Source of the DNA: Mobula hypostoma
Lineage: Eukaryota
NCBI RefSeq assembly: GCF_963921235.1
Contig: NC_086097.1
Span: 160,582,001 to 160,646,000, forward strand
Reading direction: 5' to 3'
Length of the DNA: 64,000 bases
The notes below the pieces were generated by a model that did no database searches, was not told the DNA's origin, and saw only the letters and a program-made list of their open reading frames with translations. A program made the position numbers and the translations under genes. Below, one piece after another: positions 30,751-60,129 of this stretch; positions within the stretch are counted from its first letter, which is position 1; the number at the start of each line of letters is the position of its first letter.

Positions 30751-31188
30751 AACAGTGTTTTGAGTAGTCCATAAATAGTAGAATCCATATTCAGAAGCAA
30801 TTGGTTCCTAATGATGATCTTTCTCTTAATCAGAATCCTTACAAACCTATTTTAAGTTATAGATTCCATGTGGCCATTTATTGTAAAGTGATTATCAAAA
30901 TGTTCAAAATCTCCCAAAACGTTTTATTTCACAGCCAAGTTATGACCAGAAAGCCCAGCCTTCTGAATTTTAGAACAGATAAGCCCCTCAGAAACCTTAG
31001 GGGAATAAAACCAAAGGAATTAATTGACTGTCTCACTGCTGTTAAGAATAAGTACTACTGGGTGTTCCCTCAGTCTGGTTCTTATAGTGGTTCATGGGGG
31101 AGAAGAGGCTGTGATGGTCCTCCCTGCTCCCCATTGTGCAATATGTTGTGAAATGGGTGCTAGAGATCTGCTTTACATTTATCCTCTT

Positions 31189-34100
31189 GCGCATGCGCTG
31201 GTCGTGCATGCAGCCGGTTACAGTTGCTCCGTAATTTCTTACTTTTAAACTTTGTAACTTAAGTTATTTGTTGTGTTTTTTTTCTCACGGTAACACGTTG
31301 AAGCTGCACCCTCTCTAACATGCTGGTGGAGAGAGTTTTATTTGTTTTTTTAGCACTGGAATTAGTTACTTTCGGACACGTCTCGATAGCATGGCAGCAG
31401 GATGGTCGCATTGTGTATTCAAGGGACCAATTGATTGCACTCATGCCCGCTAGTTTAGCGAACAGAGCAGCGGACATCCTGGCTGAAATCTGGAGGAAAA
31501 CACACAGAGGATGCTGAGGGGGAACAAAAAGGCGAGGGAAGAGGACTGGGTCGAGACAACGGAGGCTTATGGAGAAGTTATAAGCCATGTCTCCCCTCTC
31601 TCATCATGGGAAATGTGAGATCGCTGGGGAATAAATCGACGAATTGACTGTGCTTGTCAGGAGTCACAGAACATTTCGGGAGAGCAGTGTCATGTGCTTC
31701 ACTGAGTCGCGGCTGCACGAGGACATACCCGATCAAAGCGTTTCCATAGAGGGCTTCCAGACCGTTCGAGCTGACCGGAATTGCACTGAGACTGGTAAGC
31801 GCAAAGGAGGGGGGGCTGGCGGTTCTGGTCAGTAACAGATGGCGCAATCCTGGGCATATTACGATTAAGGAACGTGTCTGTAGCCCAGATATTGAACTTT
31901 TTGCTGTTGGACTGCGGCCATATTATTTGCCAAGGGAAATCTTGCATGCAATTGTGGTTGTTGTGTACATCCCTTCCTCTGCCAACCCGACGTCGGCGTG
32001 TAACATCATTTACACCGTCATAGCCAGTTTACAAACCCAGCACCCGAGTGCCCTCATTACCATCTCGGGTGACTTCAACCAGGTTACCATGGCTAGAACA
32101 CTGCCCAACTTCACGCAGTATGTGAGCTGTACAACCAGAGGGGAAAGGACTCTGGATTTGATGTACGCTAACGTTAAGGATGCATACAGCTCCTCTCCCC
32201 TCCCCCCACTGGGAAGGTCAAATCACAACCTGGTGCATCTAAAACCCTGCTACGTGCCTCTGGTGAAGAGTAAACCTGCAACCTCGAGGACAGTGAGGAA
32301 ATAGTCGGAGAAGGCTTATGAGGCGCTCCAGGGTTGTTTTGAGGTGACAGACTGGCAGGCACTCTGTGAACCACATGGAGAGGATATTGATGGGCTCACA
32401 GAATGTATCACTGATTACATTAACTTCCGTGTGCACTGCAATGTTCCGACAAGAACTGTCCTTTGTTATTCAAATAACAAGCCATGGGTGACAAAGGACA
32501 TTAAGGACATCCTGAACGCTAAAAAGAGGGCAATTAGGGATGGAAATAGGGAGGAGCTGAGGGCAATATAGAGGGACCTGAAAGCCAGGATCAGGGAGGC
32601 TAAAAGACAGGTACAGGAGGAATCTTGAGTGGAAACTCCATTAGAACAACATGAGAGAGGTCTGGAGGAGGATGAGGACCATCACTGGGTTTCGGCAAAC
32701 TTGCAACAGAGGAGCTGAAGGCAGTGTGGACAGGGCCAACGAACTTAACCTGTTCTTTAACAGATTTGACATTGTGACCCCTGCCCATCCCCCACGAGCC
32801 ATCTGTTGTCAGCCACCAAGCAACACATATTCCACTCTCCCCTCCTCACAGTCCCCCACCCTGCTCTTATGACTATACCCCTTCCCCACACGAAACCACC
32901 ACGGTGGGCTTCACGTCTGAACAGGTGAGAAGACAGCTGAAACGTCTCAACCCAAGCAAGGCTGCAGGACCGGATGGTATCAGTACCAGGGTGCTCAAAG
33001 CCTGTGCCCCTCAGCTATGTGGAGTACTTCGCCATGTGTTCAACATGAGCCTGAGGCTCCGGAGGGTTCCTGTACTGTGTAAGACGCCGCGCCCCAGTGG
33101 CCTCAATGACTACAGACCGGTGGCATTGACCTCCCACATCATGAAGACCTTGGAGAGACTTGTTCTGAAGCTGCTCCGGCCTATGGTCAGGCCACACTTA
33201 GATCCCCTCCAGGTCGCCTACCAGCCCCGACTAGGAGTTGAGGATGCCATCGCCTACCTGCTGAACCGTGTCTACGCCCACCTGGACAAGCCAGCGAGCA
33301 CTGTGAGGGTCATGTTTTTTGACTTCCCCAGTGCGTTCAACACCATCCGCCCTGCTCTGCTGGGGGAGAAGCTGACAGCAATGCAGGTGGATGCTTCCCT
33401 GGTATCATGGATTCTTGATTACCTGACCGGCAGACCACTGTACATGTGCTTGCAACACTGTGTGTCTGACAGAGTGATCAGCAGCACTGGGGCTCCACAG
33501 GGGACTGTCTTGTATCCCTTTCTCTTCACCATTTACACCTCGGACTTCAACTACTGCACAGAGTCTTGTCATCTTCAGAAGTTTTCGGATGACTCATCAG
33601 TTGGATGCATCAGCAAGGGAGATGAGGCTGAGTACAGGGCTATGGTAGGAAACTCTGTCACATGGTGTGAGCAGAATTATCTGCAGCTCAATGTGAAAAA
33701 GACTAAGGAGCTGGTGTTAGACCTGAGGAGAGCTAAGGTACCGGTGACCCCTGTTTCCATCCAGGGGGTCAGTGTAGACATGGTGGAGGATTACAAATAC
33801 CTGGGGATACGAATTGACAATAAACTGGACTGGTCTAAGAACTCTGAGGCTGTCTACAAGAAGGGTCAGAGCTGTCTCTATTTCCTGAGGAGACTGAGGT
33901 CCTTTAACATCTACCAGACAATGCTGAGGATGTTCTACGAGTCTGTGGTGGCCAGTGCTATCATGTTTGCTGTTGTGTGCTGGGGCAGCAGGCTGAGGGT
34001 AGCAGACACCAACAGAATCAACAAACTCATTCGTATGGCCAGTGATGTTGTGGGGATGGAACTGGACTCTCTCACGGTGGTGTCTGAAAAGAGGATGCTG

Positions 34101-42222: not shown

Positions 42223-43112
42223 TAATATGAAGTGTTGCTGCTTCACTCTCAGAGTGGCCTCATCATGGCAGAAGAGAAGGCCATGGACCGACATGTTGTA
42301 ACGAGAATGGGGATAGGAATTAAAAAGGTTGGCCACTGGGAAATTCCACTTTTGGTGGATGGAGTGGAGGTGCTCGACAAAGGGGTCCTCCAGTTTATTT
42401 TGGTTCTCACCAATGCAGAGGAGGCTGCATCAAGAGCACTGGATACAATAAACACCATCAGATTCACAGGTGAAATGTTGCCTCACCTGGAAGAACTGTT
42501 TGGAACCCTGAATGGAGGTAACAGAGGAGGTAAATGGGCAAGTGTAGCATTTCTGTCACCTACAGGGATATGTGTCAGGAGGGAGATTAGTGGGGAAGGG
42601 TGAATCGGCAAGGGAATCCAGAGAAATCTCTGTGGAAGGTGGAGATGAGGAGGACATAAAGATGTATTTGGTGGTAGGATCCTGCTGAAGGTGGCAGAAG
42701 TTGCAGAGAATGACGTATTGGATGCAGAAGTTCATGAGGTGGTAGGTGAGATAAGAGGAACTCTATCCCTGTTAAGGTGGCAGGAAGACAGGATGAGGCA
42801 GATGTCCTAGAAATGGAGGAGATGCAGGTGAGGGTAGCATCAATAATGGAGGAAGGGGAACTCCATTCTTTGAAGAAAGAGGACATCTCTGATTTCCTGG
42901 AAAGGAAAGCCTCATCCTGGGAACAGAAGCAGTTGAGACAAAGGAACTGAGAAAAAGGAATTACAGGAGACAGTGTGGGAAGAGGTATTGTCAAGGTAAC
43001 CGTGGGAATCGTAAGTTTACAAAGGATGTCAGCAGACAGATCATCTTCAGAGATAGAAAGATTGAGAAAGGAAAGGGAGGTGTCAGAAATGAATCAAGTA
43101 AGTTTAAGGGCA

Positions 43113-44480
43113 GTGTGGAAGAACATCATCAGTGAGGTTCTACCAACAATGGTTGTAACATCAGCAAATTTATAGATGGTATTTGAGCAATGCCTAGCCA
43201 CACAATCATGAGTATATAGAGAGTAGAGCAGTGAACTAAGCACACACCCCTGAAGTGCACCAGTGTTGATCGTCAGTGAGGAGGAGATGTTATCACCAAT
43301 CTGCACAGACTGTGGTCTTCTGGTTAGGAAGACGAGGATCCAAATGCAGAGGGAAGTACAGAGGCCCAGGTTCTGCAACTTCTCAAGCAAGGTTATGGGG
43401 ATGATAGTATTAAATGCTGAGCTATAGTCCATGAACAGCATCCTGACATAGGTATTTGTGTTGTTCAGGTGGTCTAAAGCCGTATGAAGAGCCACTGTGA
43501 TTGCATCTGCCACTGACCTATTGTGGTGATAGGCAAATTGTAATGGTTCCAGGTCCTTGCTGGAGGCAGGAGTTCAGTTTAGTCATGACCAACCTCTCAA
43601 AGCATTTCATCACTGTAGATGTGAGTGCTACAGTGATTAAGGCAGCTCACATTATTCTTCTTAGGTACTGGTATAATTGTTGCCTTGTTGAAACAAGTGG
43701 GAACTTCTGCCCATAGCAGTGAGAGGTTGAAAATGTCCTTGAATACTCCCTCCAGTTGGTTGGCACAGGTTTTCAGAGCCTTACCAGGTACTCCATCAGG
43801 ACCTTCCACCTTGCAAGGGTTCACTCTCTTTAAAGACAGCTTAACATTGGCCTCTGAGACAGAGATCACAGGGTCTTCAGGTGTAGCAGGGGTCTTCACA
43901 GCTGTAGTTATATTCTCCCTTTCCAAGCAGGCATAGAAGGCATTGAGTTCATCTGGTAGTGAAGCATCACTGCTATTCATGCTATTGGGTTTCACTTTGT
44001 AGGAAGTAATGCCTTGCAAACTCTGCCAGAGTTGTCGTACATCCAACTGTGCCTCCAACCTCCTTCGAAATTGTCTCTTTGCTCTTGAAATAGCCCTCCG
44101 CAAATCATACCTGGTTTTCTGGTACGAGCCTGGGTCACCAGACTCGAATGCCACAGATCTAGCCTTCAGCAGGCGATGTACTTCCTGTCATCCACGGCTT
44201 TTGGTTTGGGGAAGTATAGTAGGTCTCTATAGACACACACACATCCACATAGTTTTTAATGAAGCTGGTAACAACTGCTACATACTCATCCAGGTTCGAA
44301 GATGAATCCCTGAATACAGTCCAGTCCACTGATTCAAAGCAGTCCTGTAGGCACACCTGTGCTTTCCTTGTCCATACCTTCTTGGTCCACACTACAGTCT
44401 TCAGTCTCTGCCTGTACTCAGGGAGTGGAAGTACAGCCAGGTAATCAGACTTCCAGAAGTGAAGGCATGGAATAGCCTCC
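43113..44480 (-). mobile_element. Rex1/Babar LINE internal fragment
   Basis: [89 protein letters not shown]. Confidence 0.9.
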
Positions 44481-45704: not shown

Positions 45705-48158
45705 AACATAGAAAACCAACAGCACAATATAGGCCCTTCGTCTCATAATGCTGTGCCAAACATGTACTTTTTCAGAAAATGCCTAGGGGTTACCCATAGG
45801 CCTCTATTTTTCTAAGCTCCATGTACTGATCCAAGAATCACTTAAAAGACCCTACTATATCCGACTCCAACACCGTCGCCAGCAGCCCATTCCATGCACT
45901 CACCACTCTCTGCAACTTACCCCGGACATCTCATCTGTACCTACTTCCAAGCACCTGAACACAGTGCCCTCGTGCTAACCATTTCAGTCCTGGGAAAAAG
46001 CTTCTGACTATACACATGATCAATGCCTCTTATCATCTTATACACCTGTCAGGTCACCTCTCATCCTCCGTCACTCCAAGGAGAAAAGGTCAAGTTCACT
46101 CATAAGGTATGCTCCCCAATCCAGGCAACATCCTTGTAAATCTCCGCTGCACCCCTTCTATAGTTTCCACATCCTTCCTGTAGTGAGGCAACCAGAACTG
46201 AGCACAGTACTCCAAGTGGGGTCTGACCAGGATCCTATATAGCTGCAACATTACCCCTTGGCTCTTAAACTCAATCCTATGGTTGATGAAGGCCAACACA
46301 CCATATGCCTTCTTACCACAGAGTTAACCTGCGCAGCAGCTTTGAGTGTCCTACTGACTCGGACCCCAAGATCCCTCTGATCCTCCACACTGCCAACAGT
46401 CTTACCATTAATGCTATATTCTGCCATGATATTTGACCTACCAAAATGAACCACCTCACACTTATCTGGGTTGAACTCCATCTGCCACTTCTCAGCCCAG
46501 TTTTGCATCCTATCAATGTCCCGCTGAAACCTCTGTCAGCCCTTCACACTATCCACAACACCCCCAATCTTTGTGTCATCAGCAAATTTACTAACCCATC
46601 CCTCTACTTCCTCATCCAGGTCACTTATAAAAATCACGAAGAGAAGGGGTCCCAGAACAGATCCCTGACGCATTCCACTGGTCACCAACAGCCATGCAAA
46701 ATATGACCCATCTACAACCACTCTTTGCCTTCTGTGGGCAAGCCAATTTTGGATCCACAAAGCAAAGTCCCCTTGATCCCATGCCTCCTTACTTTCTCAA
46801 TAAACCTTGCATGGGGTACCTTTATCAAATGCCTTGCTGAAATCCATATACACTACATCTGCTGCTGTACCTTCATCAATATGTTTAGTCATATTGATGA
46901 CTAAAAAATTCAATCAGGCTCATAAGGCACGACTTACCTTTGACAAAGCCATGCTGACTATTCCTAATCATATTATGCCTCTCCAAATGTTCATAAATTC
47001 TGCCTCTCAGGTTCTTCTCCATCAAATTACCAATCACTGAAGTAAGACTCTCAGGTCTATAATTTCCTGGGCTATCACTACTCCCTTTCTTGAATAAGGG
47101 AACAACATCCGTAACCCTCCAATCCTCCGGAACCTCCCCCTTCCCCATTGATGATGCAAAGATCATTGTCGGAGGCTCAGCAATCTCCTCCCTCACCTCC
47201 CACAGTAGCCTGGGGTACATCTCGTCTGGTCTCGGTGACTTATCCAACTTGATGCGACCCAAAAAGCTCCAGCACATCCTCTTTCTTAATGTCTATATGC
47301 TCAAGCTTTTCAGTTCACTGTAAGTCATTCCCTACAATCAACAAGGTCCTTTTCCATAGTGAATATTGAAGCAAAATATTCATTAAGTACCTCCACTACC
47401 TCCTCCGGTTCCATACACACTTTTCCACTGTCGCACTTGATTGGTCCTATTCTCTCACGTCTTATCCTTTTGCTCTATTGTAGAATGCCTTGGGATTTTC
47501 TTTAATCCTGCTTGCCAAGGCCTTCTCATGGCCCCTTCTGGCTCTCCTAATTTCACTCTTAAGCTCCTTCCTGCTAGCCTTATAGTCTTCTATATCTCTA
47601 TCATTACCTTGTTTTTTTGAATCTTTCGTAAGCTTTCTTTTTCTTCTTGACTAGATTTTCAACAGGCTTTGTACACCATGGTTCCTGTACCCTACCATCC
47701 TTTCTCTGTCTCATTGGAACTTATCTATGCAGAATTCCATGCAAATATCTCCTGAACATTTGCTACATGCTGTAGATTTCCCTAAGAACATCTGCTCCCA
47801 ATTTATACTTCCAGGTTCCTGCCTGATAACTTCATATTTCTTCTTACTCCAATCAAACAATTTCCTAACTTGTCCGTTCCTGTCCCTCTCCAATGCTATG
47901 GTAAAGGAGTAAGAATTGTGAGCACTATCTCCAAAATGCTCTCCTACTGAGAGACCTGACACCTGACCAGGTTCATTTCCCAATACCAGTTCAAGTATAG
48001 CCTCCACTCTTGTAGGTTTATCCACATATTGTGTCAGGAAACCTTCCTGAACACGCCTAACAAACTCCACCCCATCTAAACTCCTTACTTTAGGGAGATG
48101 CCAATCAATATTGGGGAAATTAAAGTCTCCCATCACGACAACTCTGTTATTATTGCAC
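45705..48158 (-). mobile_element. CR1 LINE, 5'-truncated, same family as 14312-18019
   Basis: VVMGDFNFPNIDW, NYRPESLTS, SQHGFVKGKSC, QGSVLGPLLF, SKFADDTKIGG, VRPHLEYCAQFW. 8-bp TSD 'cagttaga' at 45697-45704 and 48159-48166. Confidence 0.95.
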
Positions 48159-49164
48159 CAGTTAGAGCAAAATTGCACCATGCAGCCTTGTGGGGCACCA
48201 GTGTTGAGAATAATCATGGCAGAGGTGCTGCTGCCTTTCCATACTGATTGTGGTCTGTTGGTCAGGAAGCCAAAGATCCAGTTACAAAGGGAGGTGTTGA
48301 GTCCCAGGTCAAGGAGCTTGGAAATGAGTTTGCTTGGAATTATGTTATTGAAGGTGAACCTGCAGTCAATAAATATTCGTCTAATATAGATGCCTTCACT
48401 GTCTGATACTCCAGTGATGAGTATCGGTGCAGGGAGATGGCGTCAGCCCTAAGCAGACCTGTTTTGACGTTAGATAAATTGTTGGGTCACGGTTGTCTGG
48501 GATGCTGGAGATAATGTGCGTCATGACGAGCCTCTCGAAGCACCTCATGATGGTGGATGTCAGAGCCACTGGTAGTAGTCATTAAGGAACTTTACACTGC
48601 TTTTCCTGTGTAGCAGAATAATGATGATTTTCTTGATGTAAGTGGAAACCTTAGATCGAAGCAGGGAGAAATTAAAAATGTCCAAAAGTAACCACATTAG
48701 CTGATCTGCACAGGATCTAAGGGCACACTCAGTGACACCATCCGGGCCAGATACTTTGTGTAGGTTCACTCACCAGATCATTGATCTTACATCCACGACA
48801 ATACAATGAATTCAATTGCATTAGACACTGTCCAGTGGGTGGTGACATGTCCATTCCCTTCCGCTCAAAATGTGCATAGAATGCAATAAGCTTATCAGGA
48901 TTGGATGTGTTGTTGTCAGCGATCTGGCCTAACTTTGTTTTGTAGCTTGTTATGGAATGTAAGCCTTGCTACAACTTTCAGATGAATTGGACTCTATTTT
49001 GGACTGGCATTGTCTCTTGCCATCCCTGATTGCTTTATAAAGGTCATATCTTAATTTCCTGTAAACGTCAGGGTTCCTGATTTGAATTCCAGATTTGAAT
49101 TTCAGATTTGCAATCAAAGTAGAAGATTGTGACATTATTGAAATATGAAACAAACCTTATTAAG

Positions 49165-54543: not shown

Positions 54544-55581
54544 CTGTCATGTACAGTAGACTTGAAAAGCAGCCAAATCAGATAAATCCAGAGAAATACT
54601 GCAGCTGGTGCACAGTTAAAGACAGGGATAATGTATCTTGAAGCTTTAGAGCTTGTGCCACCCCATTAGACCCTAACAACATTACCATTTAAAACTCAAG
54701 GGATTAGAAAAAATACTCCATAATTAAATTATAAATCCCCTGGGGCATCATATACAGCATATGGTCTGCAATGGTTACACTAGTGTGGTGAGCTCCAGAA
54801 GGATTACTGTATGCAACTCTTCTTTTATTGAAATATCATCTCATATCCATGGCCTGAAAAAAACTTACTTTTTTTGTTCAGAAGCTGTTTTCTGCTATTA
54901 TTATTCAGCTTAAAAGATAAAATTTGCTAATCAAAACTAAATTGGCAAGAACAAATGCTAATGCTTAGAAAACACTCAATGAGTTCTTACCATTAAAGTC
55001 CACGAAAGAGTATACAATCCAGTAAGTGAAGAGTCAACGATAAAAAAAAGCAGAAAATTCAGGAAATGGAGGTGTCAGTTGAGTGAGAAATGGATTTAAT
55101 ATTTAAGATCATTGACCTTTAGTTAAAAGTTGGAAAACAAGCATCTTTAATTTGTAGAGTAGGAGAGTAGAAGAACAGCTTTTATCTCATTATCAGAGTT
55201 TCAAAGACTTCTTTATGTGATTGTCAGGGGCTTAAAAAAGACACTCATAGATGAGTGTGCCCCACAAAATCATTCAGAATCTCCCCCAACCAGAAGCACT
55301 GAATGAACCAAAAGATCCACAATCTGCTGACAGCTAGATAGATGATGTTCAGGTCTGGTCTGATGACCAAGGAAATTACAACAGGTTCAGGTGTAACATC
55401 TGAAGTGGCAATTCTGGATCAAACTTGAATCACAGAAGGATGTTCAACTGCTGTGGAAGGGATTAAGTGCTATCACCAAGCAACATATGTGACAGCAAGA
55501 TTTCACTCCCAGATGAGCTCAATGTCTTTTATGCTTGCTTTGGCCAGCAGAATATGATCACACCATCACAAACTCCCACAG

Positions 55582-58500
55582 GTAAAACCTGCCTACAGGC
55601 AGAAATTGAAACAGGAAGCGACCATAGTGAAAACCATCCACTGCTGGTCCAACCAATCAGACTCACTGACAAAAGACTACTTTGATAGTGTCACCTGGGA
55701 GATATTTTGAGCTAACACCTCTGAATACACGGAAGTGGTCATAAGCTTCATTTCGAAGTTCATTGAAAACAATGTACCCCAAAAATCAGTCGGGGTCTAC
55801 CCAAACCAGAAGCCTTGGATAAATAGTTTAGTGCGTGTTGCTCTCACCGCAAAGAATAAAGCCTTCGACTCCAGAAACCAACGGGAGCTCAAGAGATGTC
55901 ACTATGATTTACGTAGAGCCACCAAGGTGGCAAAATGGCAACACAGGGACAAAATCCAGACACAACTCTGCAACAATGACACATGTAGCATAAGGCAAAG
56001 ACTGCACACCATCATGTACTTCAAGAGGAAACGCAGCAATACAGCCAACATTGCCGCTTCGCTCCTGGACGAGCTAAATTTTTTTTATGTTCGATTTGAG
56101 TTTGATAAGACTGAACCCCTGAGGAGAGTCACTGATGAGACCTGCTCCCTGGTCATCTCCAAGGCTAAGGTACATAGAATTTCCCAATGTGTCAACATTC
56201 GCAAGGCAGCAGGGCCGGATAGCATCCCAGGGCAGGTCCTCAAAGCGTGTGCAGAACAGCTGTCTGGTGTGTTTACAGACATTTTTAACCTCTTCCTCTC
56301 CCAATGTGTAGTGCCTCCTCCTCCAGTTTCAAATCGTCTATCATTGTCCCTGTACCTAAGAAAACCAAGCAGCATGCCCGAACGACTGGTGCCCTCTCAC
56401 CTCAATTATAAGCAAATGCTTTGAGGGGCTGGTTAAAGGCTACATCTGCAGCATGCTACCACCCATACTGGACCCCCTACAACTCACCTATTAACAGAAC
56501 CAGTCTACCGAAAATATATAGCCACAGCACTACATACCATCCTCACTCACTTGGAGAAGAGGGACGCATACGTTAGAACGCTGCTCCTGGACTACAGTTC
56601 ATCATTCAACACATAATTCCCTCCAGTCATGACAGGAAGCTCAGAGACCTTGGCCTGCACCCCACCCCATGCAGCTGGATCCTGGACTTCCTATCGGAAC
56701 GCCAACAGGTGGTAAGGATGGGCTCCCTCATCTCTGCCCCTCTGATGCTCAACACAGGTGCCCCCCAGGGTTGTGTCTTGAGTCCTTTCCTCTATTTCCT
56801 TTACACCCACGTCTATGCTGCCACACTCAGCTGCAATCTGCTGATCAAATTCGCAGATGACACGACATTGATCGGCCTTATTTCTAGCAGTGACGAGATA
56901 GCCTAGAGGATTAACACCCTGACATAGTTGTGCCACGATAACAACCTCTCCCTTAATGTCCAAAAAACCAGAAGAGCTGATTGTAGATTACAGGAGGAAT
57001 GGAGACAGGCTCACCCCAATCAACATCAATAGGACTGCAGCTGAGAGGGTGAGTAGTTTCAAGTTCCTCCATATACACATCACTGAAGATCTCACCTGGA
57101 CTGTACACACTGATTGTGTGGCAAAAAAAAAAGCACAACAGAGTCTCTTCCATTTCAGGCGCTGACGAAGTCTGGCACAAGCCCCCAAATCCCCAAAACC
57201 TTCTACAGGGGCACCACTGAGAGCATTCTGACTGGCTGTATCACCACCTGGTACAGAAACTGCACCAACCTTGACCACTGGACACTGCAGACAGCACATC
57301 TGTGGACATGAACTTCCCTCCATTGAGGACATGTACAGCAGCAAGTGCATAAAGGAGGACTGGAAGATCAGAGGACATCAGTCACCTCAACCATAAACTA
57401 TTTCAGCTACTTCCAATATGACAAACAGTACCGCAGCATTAAAGCCAGGACCAACAGGCTATGGGACAGCTTCTTTCTACAAGCCATTAAATTTATAAAT
57501 TCACTAGACAACGGGGTGACCCATTGGGGCACCCTTTGAGAGAAGGGTAGTGCAGCCTGATGTGACCAGAATGAACATCAAATTTTCCTGAATGCTATTG
57601 GTATCGCTTTGCTTTGGAAACTGAAGTAGAAAACCTCAGTTTATTAAAGAAGAACGACACATAGCAAAGCAAATATAGCTCCTCCTCGTTGAACAAAGGA
57701 CACTTTTGATGGCAACATTTCTGGTTTATCTGCCACCCTTGTGCCTCTCGTTGTCATTCTGGAGGCATGCAGTCCTCTCATCCCCCATCTCTTCATCTCT
57801 TCTGTTGTTTGTTGTTTGTCTCTGATCTTGGAGACATGCATGCCTCTCTTCTGTCTCTTCTTCTCTGATCTATTTTTGTCCTGACTCTCTGATCCTGGAG
57901 TCGTGCGGCCCTGGCCTCATCCGATCCTTGTTCTCTCCCTCTCCTTGCCGCTTCCTGACAACGTTTGGCGTCATCTCTTGACCATAATGTCCCACTTCCC
58001 TTTTCACGCAGCATAATTAGGCTGACTGTTTTTTTTTAACCCTAATGCTGGATAGAAGTTATGAAGCACTAACACCAAAGGATGCTGATTATTCTTCATG
58101 ATGTGGCTGGTGCTCTCCTAAATGGACGTGATATAGTCACTGCTGTCCTTTGACGGCAGCAAAGGGTTTTATAGGTATCTCGAAGTACGTCATTACAATA
58201 AGATTTAATTATCTCTTATTGATGTGTGGCAGTTAGATCTGTCCCAATCCTGCACATGCTGATGGTGATTAGCAGAATGTGACCCCTCGAAATAGAGCTG
58301 CCGTGCCCTTTTGCTCTGGTCGGTGTCACTGCTGAGGCTGGCCATGCGCATGCATCGGGCTGTCATGTCTCGACTTCCATGATGGCTGGTCGGCTCTCAG
58401 GTGAAAGCCAGCCTGTTGATTTTTGGCAAATGAGCAATTTTATACAAAAATATAACCCTGAACTTTGCCTGCATTCTGTAAGTTAGCGCATTTTAATACA

Positions 58501-58684: not shown

Positions 58685-58944
58685 CAGCCCCTGATGACCC
58701 TGTGATTTCAGTTCTGAGGCCTATATCAGAACATTCTTCAGAAGGGTGAACCCATAAAAAGCATCTGGCCTAGACAGTCTACCTGGCCAAGTCCTGAAGA
58801 CCTGTCCTAACCAACGGCTGGGGTGTTTAGTGACATCTTTAGCATCTCACTTCGGCAGTCTAAGGTACCCACCTGCTTCAAGCAGGCCTCAAATCATACA
58901 GATGCCCAAGAAGAAAGTGGTAACTTGCCTCAGCATCCAAAAGC

Positions 58945-59100
58945 ACACTCAGTACTCTGCAAAAGTCTTAGGCACCCGAGATTTTTATATGCTTTCAGAT
59001 GGTATGGCCTCCACAGAGCCCTGATCTCAGCATCATCGAGGTTGTTTGGGATTATATGGAGAGACAGAAGCAAGCAAGTCATCAACATCTGCAGAAGAAC
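58945..59100 (+). mobile_element. Tc1 fragment (one TIR plus the DDE third-motif region)
   Basis: 'cagtactctgcaaaagtcttaggcacc' followed by VWPPQSPDLSIIEVVWDYMERQKQ. Confidence 0.75.
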
Positions 59101-60129
59101 CATGGCAAATCTTCATTCAGCCCTAGAACATTTGGACAGTGAAGATGCATACATCAGAAAGTTCTTCATTGACTATAGCTCCTCATTCAACATTATCATC
59201 CCCTAAGCTCCAGCACCTAGGCCTAAGTACTTCCTTGTGCAACTGGATTCTTGATTTCCTCACTTGCAGACCCTAGACGGTTTGCACTGGCAATAACATC
59301 TCCTCCACAATCACCATCAACACAGGGGAATCAAAAGGTTGCATGCTTAGCCACCTGCTCTACTCACTTCACACCTGAGACTGCGAGGCTAAGTACACTT
59401 TCATTGCCATATTCAAGTTTGCTGACAACACCATTGTTGTTGGCCAATTCAAAGATGGTGAAGTGTCAGCATATAGGAGGGAGATTGAAATTCCAGCTGA
59501 ATGGTGCCTGTTTTTGCCTCTAGAGGTGCAGTTCACTTTGAATGTTCACCACTTTCAATATGTAAACTGCTTTTTATGTCAATTCCTGTGCAGGTTAATT
59601 TTGATCCGATTTGAAGCACACAGTAATAGACATTCATCTTCACCCATTCTTTAGTTGTCCTTGAAAGAGCAATATATTTTCACAAGAGATCTCATTAAAA
59701 ACCCTGAAGAAAGCTTCTATCTGGGGTGATTTTTGGGAAGTAGTTTAACTTACTGCATAGCTGTGTAGATACATACTGCAAGGGCAGTAGAATGAAAAGA
59801 CATTGCTTGTCTTCAAGGGCATCGCCCATGTTCTAGAGATGCATCTTGAACTGCATAGGTGATAATGTTGGCTTCTGAGTTGAACAACATCGGTCACCAG
59901 GAACTGGAAGTCAGGTCAGAATGTGGCTCATCAATTGCATCTTCACGACACTTGAATGCAATCACAATGAGCATAGCTGCAGCACAAGCCCACACCAAAG
60001 CTGAAACAACAAGAACGAGAGCAGCTAATACAAAATGTGAAGTTGAGATGCAAATAGAGAAAGAACATATAGGAATGGAGAGTACGTGTAGAGGCTACAT
60101 TAAGTGCGTTCAAGGAAGAGTGTAAAAAT

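Follow-up and report, generated by a model that had tools for sequence, protein, structure and literature searches.

A conserved, predicted eIF4E-binding peptide at the N-terminus of a Rex1-clade retrotransposon protein

The window analyzed here is a stretch of 64,000 nucleotides from Mobula hypostoma (contig NC_086097.1, positions 160,582,001 to 160,646,000 of the forward strand). On its plus strand, from 31188 to about 34519, lies a full-length, decayed long interspersed nuclear element (LINE) of the Rex1 clade, whose single open reading frame (ORF) successively encodes a hydrophobic leader, a short motif, a basic tract, an APE endonuclease (EN), and a reverse transcriptase (RT). The N-terminus of this protein family carries a conserved, 4E-BP-like peptide predicted to bind eIF4E; we put at about even the chances that it does so as a clamp acting in cis, which would lead the element's mRNA from translation to its use as template. 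The data describe a conserved and likely eIF4E-binding module in a known element family. An earlier note, made from the sequence alone, had proposed that this protein might bind eIF4E: its sequence observation is confirmed and its interpretation is partly supported. It had also supposed that such a motif was undescribed, and among the titles and abstract openings listed by literature searches, which covered neither subscription journals nor Repbase reports, none describes an eIF4E motif or a signal leader in a LINE.

The N-terminal motif and its conservation

The main ORF starts at an ATG at 31320. The peptide RIVYSRDQLIAL is encoded at 31407–31442, with its tyrosine at 31416, and a TGA at 31515–31517 precedes a basic stretch, all as first noted. 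The canonical eIF4E-binding-type motif spans residues 30–42 (31407–31445, plus strand; Y33, R35, L38, and I39), an assignment that draws on conservation among sibling copies, enrichment in distant relatives, and model docking. In the window family the core reads YSRDQLI and matches the canonical YXXXXL-phi, phi being a hydrophobic residue. The extended eIF4E-binding motif is YX(R/K)X2L-phi-X2(R/K/Q) (PMC8558276), and the patterns used for our counts were taken from the same source.

On its own, the bare motif would be chance: the six frames of the window together hold 108 matches to Y-x4-L-hydrophobic, and 11 of these have R/K at +2 from the tyrosine. This number, like the T-rich 5′ untranslated region (UTR) of the window element, speaks for a fortuitous peptide or for one that only reflects a conserved DNA or RNA element of the 5′ region, such as an internal promoter or a T-rich tract. 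The earlier note had allowed for chance, which holds for the bare pattern, whereas conservation shows otherwise. Searching the same genome with the 5′ region as query yielded 3411 first-look candidates, of which 40 were scored and 30, including the window copy, were fetched and aligned. No variation occurs at Y, S, R, L38, and L41 among the 30 aligned copies, all of which thus have the R at +2 of the extended motif. Four of the 30 are open across the entire fetched stretch. Together with one more copy they were traced to their ends, and three of these five consist of one ORF of 999–1005 residues that starts at the same ATG and extends across leader, motif, basic tract, EN, and RT. Because three of the five traced copies carry all of these in one ORF, the motif belongs to the EN-RT protein; its being in frame with EN-RT in intact copies was one of the three points, conservation being another, on which the earlier note had let its idea stand or fall.

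More distant relatives were compared in several ways. In an alignment of 27 rows, made up of one own copy and 26 of 53 matches selected because their N-termini were intact, neither Y33 nor L38 varies. The first homologue searches were biased by the presence of the motif inside the query, and two sets were therefore chosen on the endonuclease alone. The DNA set was assembled from metagenome loci by two endonuclease peptide patterns; 80 loci were kept, 74 had a located EN start, and the 47 whose open stretch upstream measured at least 75 codons fell into 33 clusters at 70% identity. Of these clusters, 18 contain Y.[RK]..L-phi (shuffle mean 0.47, maximum 3 in 1000; downstream windows 2/95) and 10 the extended motif (shuffle 0.07). 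The protein set came from an EN-only query and comprised the top 150 cluster representatives (50% identity), of which 109 had a located EN start and 80, those with at least 60 residues upstream of EN, were counted. Among them, 42 contain the core motif (shuffle 5.76), 39 contain Y.[RK]..L[ILMFV] (shuffle mean 1.09, maximum 5 in 500; downstream windows 1/295), and 24 the extended motif (shuffle 0.23; downstream windows 0/295). The conservation of Y, L, and phi, which the earlier note had proposed to check across fishes, therefore holds across very distant families (39/80 proteins, 18/33 DNA clusters).

When each position was freed in turn, Tyr was found at position 0 in 36/37 cases, Leu at +5 in 36/37, R/K at +2 in 36/39, and L/M/F/I at +6 in 36/37. 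The Tyr, +2, Leu, and hydrophobic positions are those that contact eIF4E in solved complexes (PMC8558276). Of 48 matches to a generic helix-cap pattern within EN-RT bodies, only 2 have Tyr, and the Tyr preference of the motif disfavors a generic helix cap as an explanation. Across 25 families, all six codons are in use for both Arg(+2) and Leu(+5), and flanking codons disagree. The motif lies at a variable distance from the endonuclease (about 50 to 142 residues), with diverging flanks. Judged from these comparisons, the motif is under protein-level constraint and is not a chance match. A DNA or RNA element in place of a peptide is ruled out by the synonymous codon usage, and the enrichment of at least 35-fold over shuffles stands against chance, as do the frame-specific hydropathy and openness of the leader described below. 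Chance or by-product origin is thus largely refuted, and we regard it as very improbable.

The sequences suggest that the motif is ancestral in the main group, in all three subclades of which a quick tree found it; in this tree long branches meet among the distant rows, so that the position of distant motif-like families is unsure. Six distant elements (L095, L098, L105, L113, L117, and L125), only 23–28% identical to the window family, have peptides resembling the motif ahead of the endonuclease; certain of these are degenerate, others directly follow the start Met, and in one family the peptide lies behind a strong hydrophobic leader.

Predicted structure and modelled eIF4E complex

AlphaFold2 folded EN and RT confidently (mean predicted local distance difference test [pLDDT] 80.5). 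Residues 17–89 had pLDDT below 50, with short helices at 35–40 and 55–61, and the motif is predicted to sit in a disordered, accessible tail. Elsewhere in the ORF of the intact sibling L031, the linker that joins the endonuclease region to RT (residues 488–531) is rich in proline and predicted to be disordered.

Modelling of a complex with eIF4E had been suggested by the earlier note. We used ESMFold2, without alignments, on residues 26–66 of L031 rather than of the window copy; the partner was a chondrichthyan eIF4E (P0056), 100% identical over 98% of a 45-residue exon query from the same genome. The model scored 0.88 in three runs versus 0.00 for the best of three controls; the runs agree in at least 81% of contacts, with a partner pLDDT of at least 66. 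The score mark is reached by 51/78 solved versus 2/108 mismatched microbial pairs, and by 71/105 versus 2/126 eukaryotic ones. On eIF4E the modelled interface comprises the dorsal residues H39-P40-L41, V71, W75, E134, and L137 and the lateral residues F49, I65, and I81, which correspond to human residues named in PMC8558276. On the peptide it comprises residues 30–42, 44–49, and 53–61 (53–54 and 56–61 within the last patch). Contacts on both dorsal and lateral faces reproduce, in the model, the geometry of 4E-BPs, and the least-error pairs all come from the canonical part. The Rex1 peptide probably binds some eIF4E-family protein.

A passing score does not discriminate which family member is bound. 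This silence is compatible with a peptide that binds an eIF4E-family protein for ends other than a cis clamp: docking through 4EHP or the germline eIF4E1B into repressive or storage granules, a nuclear ride with eIF4E, or activation. 4E-T travels with eIF4E into the nucleus, and a basic tract follows the motif in Rex1. 4E-BP1-3 and 4E-T bind both eIF4E and 4EHP (PMC5538437). Cup and 4E-T silence mRNAs and at the same time prevent their decapping (PMC7358283). The GIGYF1/2 partners of 4EHP share the canonical core, some Rex1 relatives reading Y-G-R-E, and GIGYF lacks R/K/Q at +9 like the window family (PMC5538437). Among the motif-bearing Rex1 relatives, in contrast, R or K at +9, which favors eIF4E over 4EHP (PMC5538437), is the commonest state (23/39), R/K/Q at this common, not required, position totals 24/39, and Tyr at −2, whose role the same source doubts, occurs in 1/39. 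The activator variant is further disfavored by the Pfam search, in which no eIF4A- or eIF3-binding domain was detected. We consider these other ends rather unlikely.

Several observations weigh against a cis-acting eIF4E-binding peptide. The score of 0.88 may reflect memory of the many solved 4E-BP-type complexes and shows likeness, not binding; the calibration set of the complex tool left out peptides and disordered chains. A sequence search of the PDB returned no eIF4E binder, the only match being unrelated (E 0.078), and the ESM Atlas returned none either, only unnamed clusters under 0.9 and a transposase-linked cluster at 0.78. Pfam gave three weak hits on 25 motif peptides, one of them relevant (eIF4G1-like, E 0.19, below cut-off). 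At the last position of the extended motif (+9), the window family has Met instead of R/K/Q and 8/39 motif-bearing relatives have Gly, and Phe replaces Tyr in 3/19 DNA-cluster matches. Among 60 representatives with a native-looking basic tract, 39 have the core motif and 21 do not, and the motif is degenerate or missing in about a third of relatives. The clusters share ancestry, and their counts do not represent independent origins. A working signal peptide would normally deliver the motif into the lumen of the endoplasmic reticulum (ER). Finally, holding of the cap has not yielded full-length copies: among 39 copies selected by their 3′ end, one reaches the 5′ end and 38 are truncated, in line with normal 5′ truncation. 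An excess of full-length copies, suggested by similar first-look counts at the two ends (3411 at the 5′ end versus 2971 at the 3′ end), was dropped on this direct check. Many of the motif-less representatives look like fused gene models. Pfam gave no match on the N-terminus, and no relative was found in viral contigs.

The peptide might also be a conserved helix that is merely 4E-like and has another partner, such as its own EN-RT, RNA, membrane, or the translocon, the leader sending most of the protein into the ER for disposal or sorting. S/T/D/N at +1 and E/Q at +4 suit an ordinary helix cap, degenerate versions in distant families have R, K, or H at the hydrophobic position, and a hydrophobic leader core is present in 27 of the 36 representatives with at least 20 upstream residues. 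Against this, Tyr is chosen over other hydrophobic residues (36/37), R/K at +2 and +9 is what the extended eIF4E consensus calls for, AlphaFold2 shows no confident packing of the N-terminal tail onto EN-RT, and the motif is retained in leaderless families. We judge another partner unlikely.

Leader, second patch, and proposed mechanism

The signal-peptide-like leader (residues 1–24; 31320–31391, plus strand; best 12-residue hydropathy 2.58) may be cleaved after residue 24, judging by eye. In 25 families its mean hydropathy is 2.19 in the coding frame, against values of 1.12 and 1.01 for the two others; the coding frame has 11 stops, the other frames 46 and 28. A leader arising as a T-rich by-product was rejected, as hydropathy and open reading are specific to the coding frame. 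Among Met-initiated leaders of 20–55 residues, 20/24 reach a hydropathy of at least 2, the median uncharged run is 13, and 11/24 could alternatively span the membrane by a rough 19-residue sum. The short hydrophobic core near the start Met is a signal-peptide feature. The leader noted earlier before the motif is thus real and frame-specific; its likeness to an ER signal, which that note did not address, could place the motif in the wrong compartment. On a protein acting on RNA and nuclear DNA, a signal-like leader is a puzzle of topology, and eIF4E once bound could itself block translocation.

In 39 motif-bearing proteins starting with Met, the Tyr lies 2–9 residues from the Met in 8, 16–24 in 4, 28–45 in 22, and further in 5. 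Some of the short cases may be truncated gene models. Leaderless families nevertheless exist, as a stop immediately upstream at a small number of DNA loci shows; the leaders of several other families are only weakly hydrophobic. Since plausible cleavage sites, identified by eye, often fall a few residues before the Tyr, both arrangements would put the motif near the mature N-terminus.

Downstream, residues 53–61 (31476–31502, plus strand) form a candidate non-canonical motif reading I-P-x-E-I in most copies, with Leu in place of Pro in the window. Among the 27 copies still in frame there, this position holds Pro (20 copies), Leu (6 copies), or Arg (1 copy); more widely, [ILVF]Px[ED]-hydrophobic occurs in only 16/39 motif-bearing representatives. 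The patch begins 14 residues past the end of the seven-residue core, close to the published spacing, non-canonical motifs starting 15–29 residues from canonical ones (PMC4164784). It is followed by an Arg/Lys-rich tract (31494–31590, plus strand), interrupted in the window by a stop and a 5-nt deletion, which may be RNA-binding or resemble a nuclear localization signal. Across the 45 residues that directly precede the endonuclease, the mean net charge in 39 relatives is +12.

These features would fit the following scheme for a cis clamp. Because it leaves the ribosome first, the motif would meet eIF4E on its own message; the canonical helix would bind the dorsal face and residues 53–61 would reach the lateral pocket. 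The second patch could let the Rex1 tail displace eIF4G, as non-canonical motifs are needed for competition (PMC4164784). New initiation would be halted and the cap shielded, as by Cup and 4E-T, the basic tract would contribute RNA grip or nuclear import, and the mRNA would become a quiet ribonucleoprotein (RNP) template in an element devoid of ORF1. Granted binding, the step in which the motif meets its own eIF4E, initiation stops, and the element's own RNA serves as template seems moderately likely. More weakly, the leader might bring the translating mRNA to the ER through the signal recognition particle (SRP) and then be either cleaved, with translocation aborted, or retained as an anchor, the motif remaining cytosolic. 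The full scheme, in which a LINE clade would have replaced ORF1 by a 90-residue module of ER leader, 4E-BP mimic, and basic tract, so that newly made RT would seize its own cap-bound eIF4E at the ER, stop translation, and take the capped RNP to the nucleus, is in our view doubtful.

If true, this full scheme would provide a cap-based route to cis preference, unlike that of L1, which is poly(A)-based. How single-ORF LINEs pick their own RNA, limit their protein, and switch a message to template is discussed in PMC3894237, where such elements are argued to need limits on their own protein; a cis-acting 4E-BP mimic fits this argument. If the eIF4E-binding site is real, a mimic of a host translation factor is encoded by thousands of copies in fish genomes. 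It would likely act in the germ line, in which the fate of mRNAs is governed by complexes of eIF4E with its partners. Independently of this, one would not expect an EN-RT protein that works in the nucleus to carry a signal-like leader.

The window copy and comparison with known systems

The 5′ edge of the window element is common to sibling copies, and its (TATGAC)n tail is as in siblings. All features below lie on the plus strand. The 5′ UTR (31188–31319) is 132 bases long and contains no ORF1. It does contain a 13-codon upstream ORF (uORF; 31193–31234) starting 5 bases inside the element; the uORF stop falls within 20 codons in 23 of 28 pattern-matched copies (28 of the 30 aligned copies matched), and, kept in most siblings, the uORF could dampen translation of the main ORF. 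The first bases of the element, TGCGCATGCG (31188–31199), resemble the consensus NRF1 binding site and may be part of an internal promoter.

The premature TGA at 31515–31517 is private to the window copy. It had been read as a decayed CGA; the codon is AGA in the 29 other aligned copies. The APE endonuclease region (31606–32300) is broken by frameshifts and gives a weak Pfam match (Exo_endo_phos_2, E 0.072); its relatives match Exo_endo_phos. Reverse transcriptase followed by an ALKBH8_N-type domain occupies 33102–33953 (Pfam RVT_1, E 4.6e-23; ALKBH8_N, E 4.1e-9). Aligned with L031 over 3342 bases, the window copy differs by 182 mismatches and shows 14 listed gaps, of which two lie at alignment ends; breaks include a 5-nt deletion at about 31571, a 1-nt deletion at about 31632, and insertions at about 31808 and 32601, among others. 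With its private stop at 31515 and several frameshifts, this copy is dead. No target-site duplication was evident by eye at the four copies inspected.

The assignment to Rex1 made in the earlier note is borne out by the RVT_1 and ALKBH8_N matches and by long stretches of RT identical, in a comparison by eye, to REX-15_XT (labelled Rex1 in the supplement of PMC3708506); the quick tree contained no named reference. An APE domain upstream of RT within one ORF is a feature of the Rex1 clade, as are the oligonucleotide tail after the 3′ UTR and the frequent 5′ truncation, both of which are described for Rex elements (PMC6274825). The closest named protein matches are teleost and Mobula ray gene models. 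Fragments of the Rex1 N-terminus also turn up in three gene models (P0014, P0018, and P0039, annotated as a calcium channel, JAZF1b, and an NLR protein), which are either annotation chimeras or exonisations. More distant LINE fragments, 25–37% identical to the Rex1 ORF, lie in the window at about 42986–44470, 46344–47262, 48089–48790, 55567–57129, and 58707–59537.

The window element thus resembles Rex1-clade non-LTR elements such as REX-15_XT in its APE and RT with an ALKBH8_N domain and in its oligonucleotide tail. Unlike it, the Rex elements of published accounts come with no leader or eIF4E motif in the excerpted text of PMC6274825, and the main text of PMC3708506, as excerpted, has no mention of eIF4, signal, or hydrophobic. 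In placing a translation-control device in the N-terminal region, it is comparable to the single-ORF non-LTR elements bearing 2A sequences, in which 2A is argued to keep ORF2 protein in check in elements lacking ORF1 (PMC3708506; PMC3894237). However, 2A works on the elongating ribosome, whereas the Rex1 motif points to initiation, and no 2A-like sequence was seen in the N-terminus of the window family. Two distant, motif-less elements (L124 and L127) have 2A-like NPGP sequences in the N-terminal region upstream of the endonuclease.

Precedents for the possible ER route come from other element classes. Ty1 Gag provides one for SRP-coupled ER targeting of a retroelement mRNA, although the Ty1 route removes cis preference rather than creating it (PMC3945221). 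The precore protein of hepatitis B virus provides another, its signal peptide being cleaved before the protein is released to the cytosol (PMC2114996). Compared with the GIGYF1/2-4EHP repressors, Rex1 relatives differ in the rarity of Tyr at −2 and the frequency of R/K at +9 (PMC5538437). The closest likeness in sequence is to 4E-BP1-3, Thor, Cup, 4E-T, and eIF4G: a canonical YX4L-phi with R/K at +2 and, across Rex1 relatives, often at +9. With 4E-BPs and eIF4G the peptide also shares a downstream hydrophobic patch, a disordered context, and, in the model, dorsal and lateral contacts on eIF4E. It differs from them in matching no Pfam family above cut-off and, above all, in being fused to a retrotransposon EN-RT, usually behind a signal-like leader.
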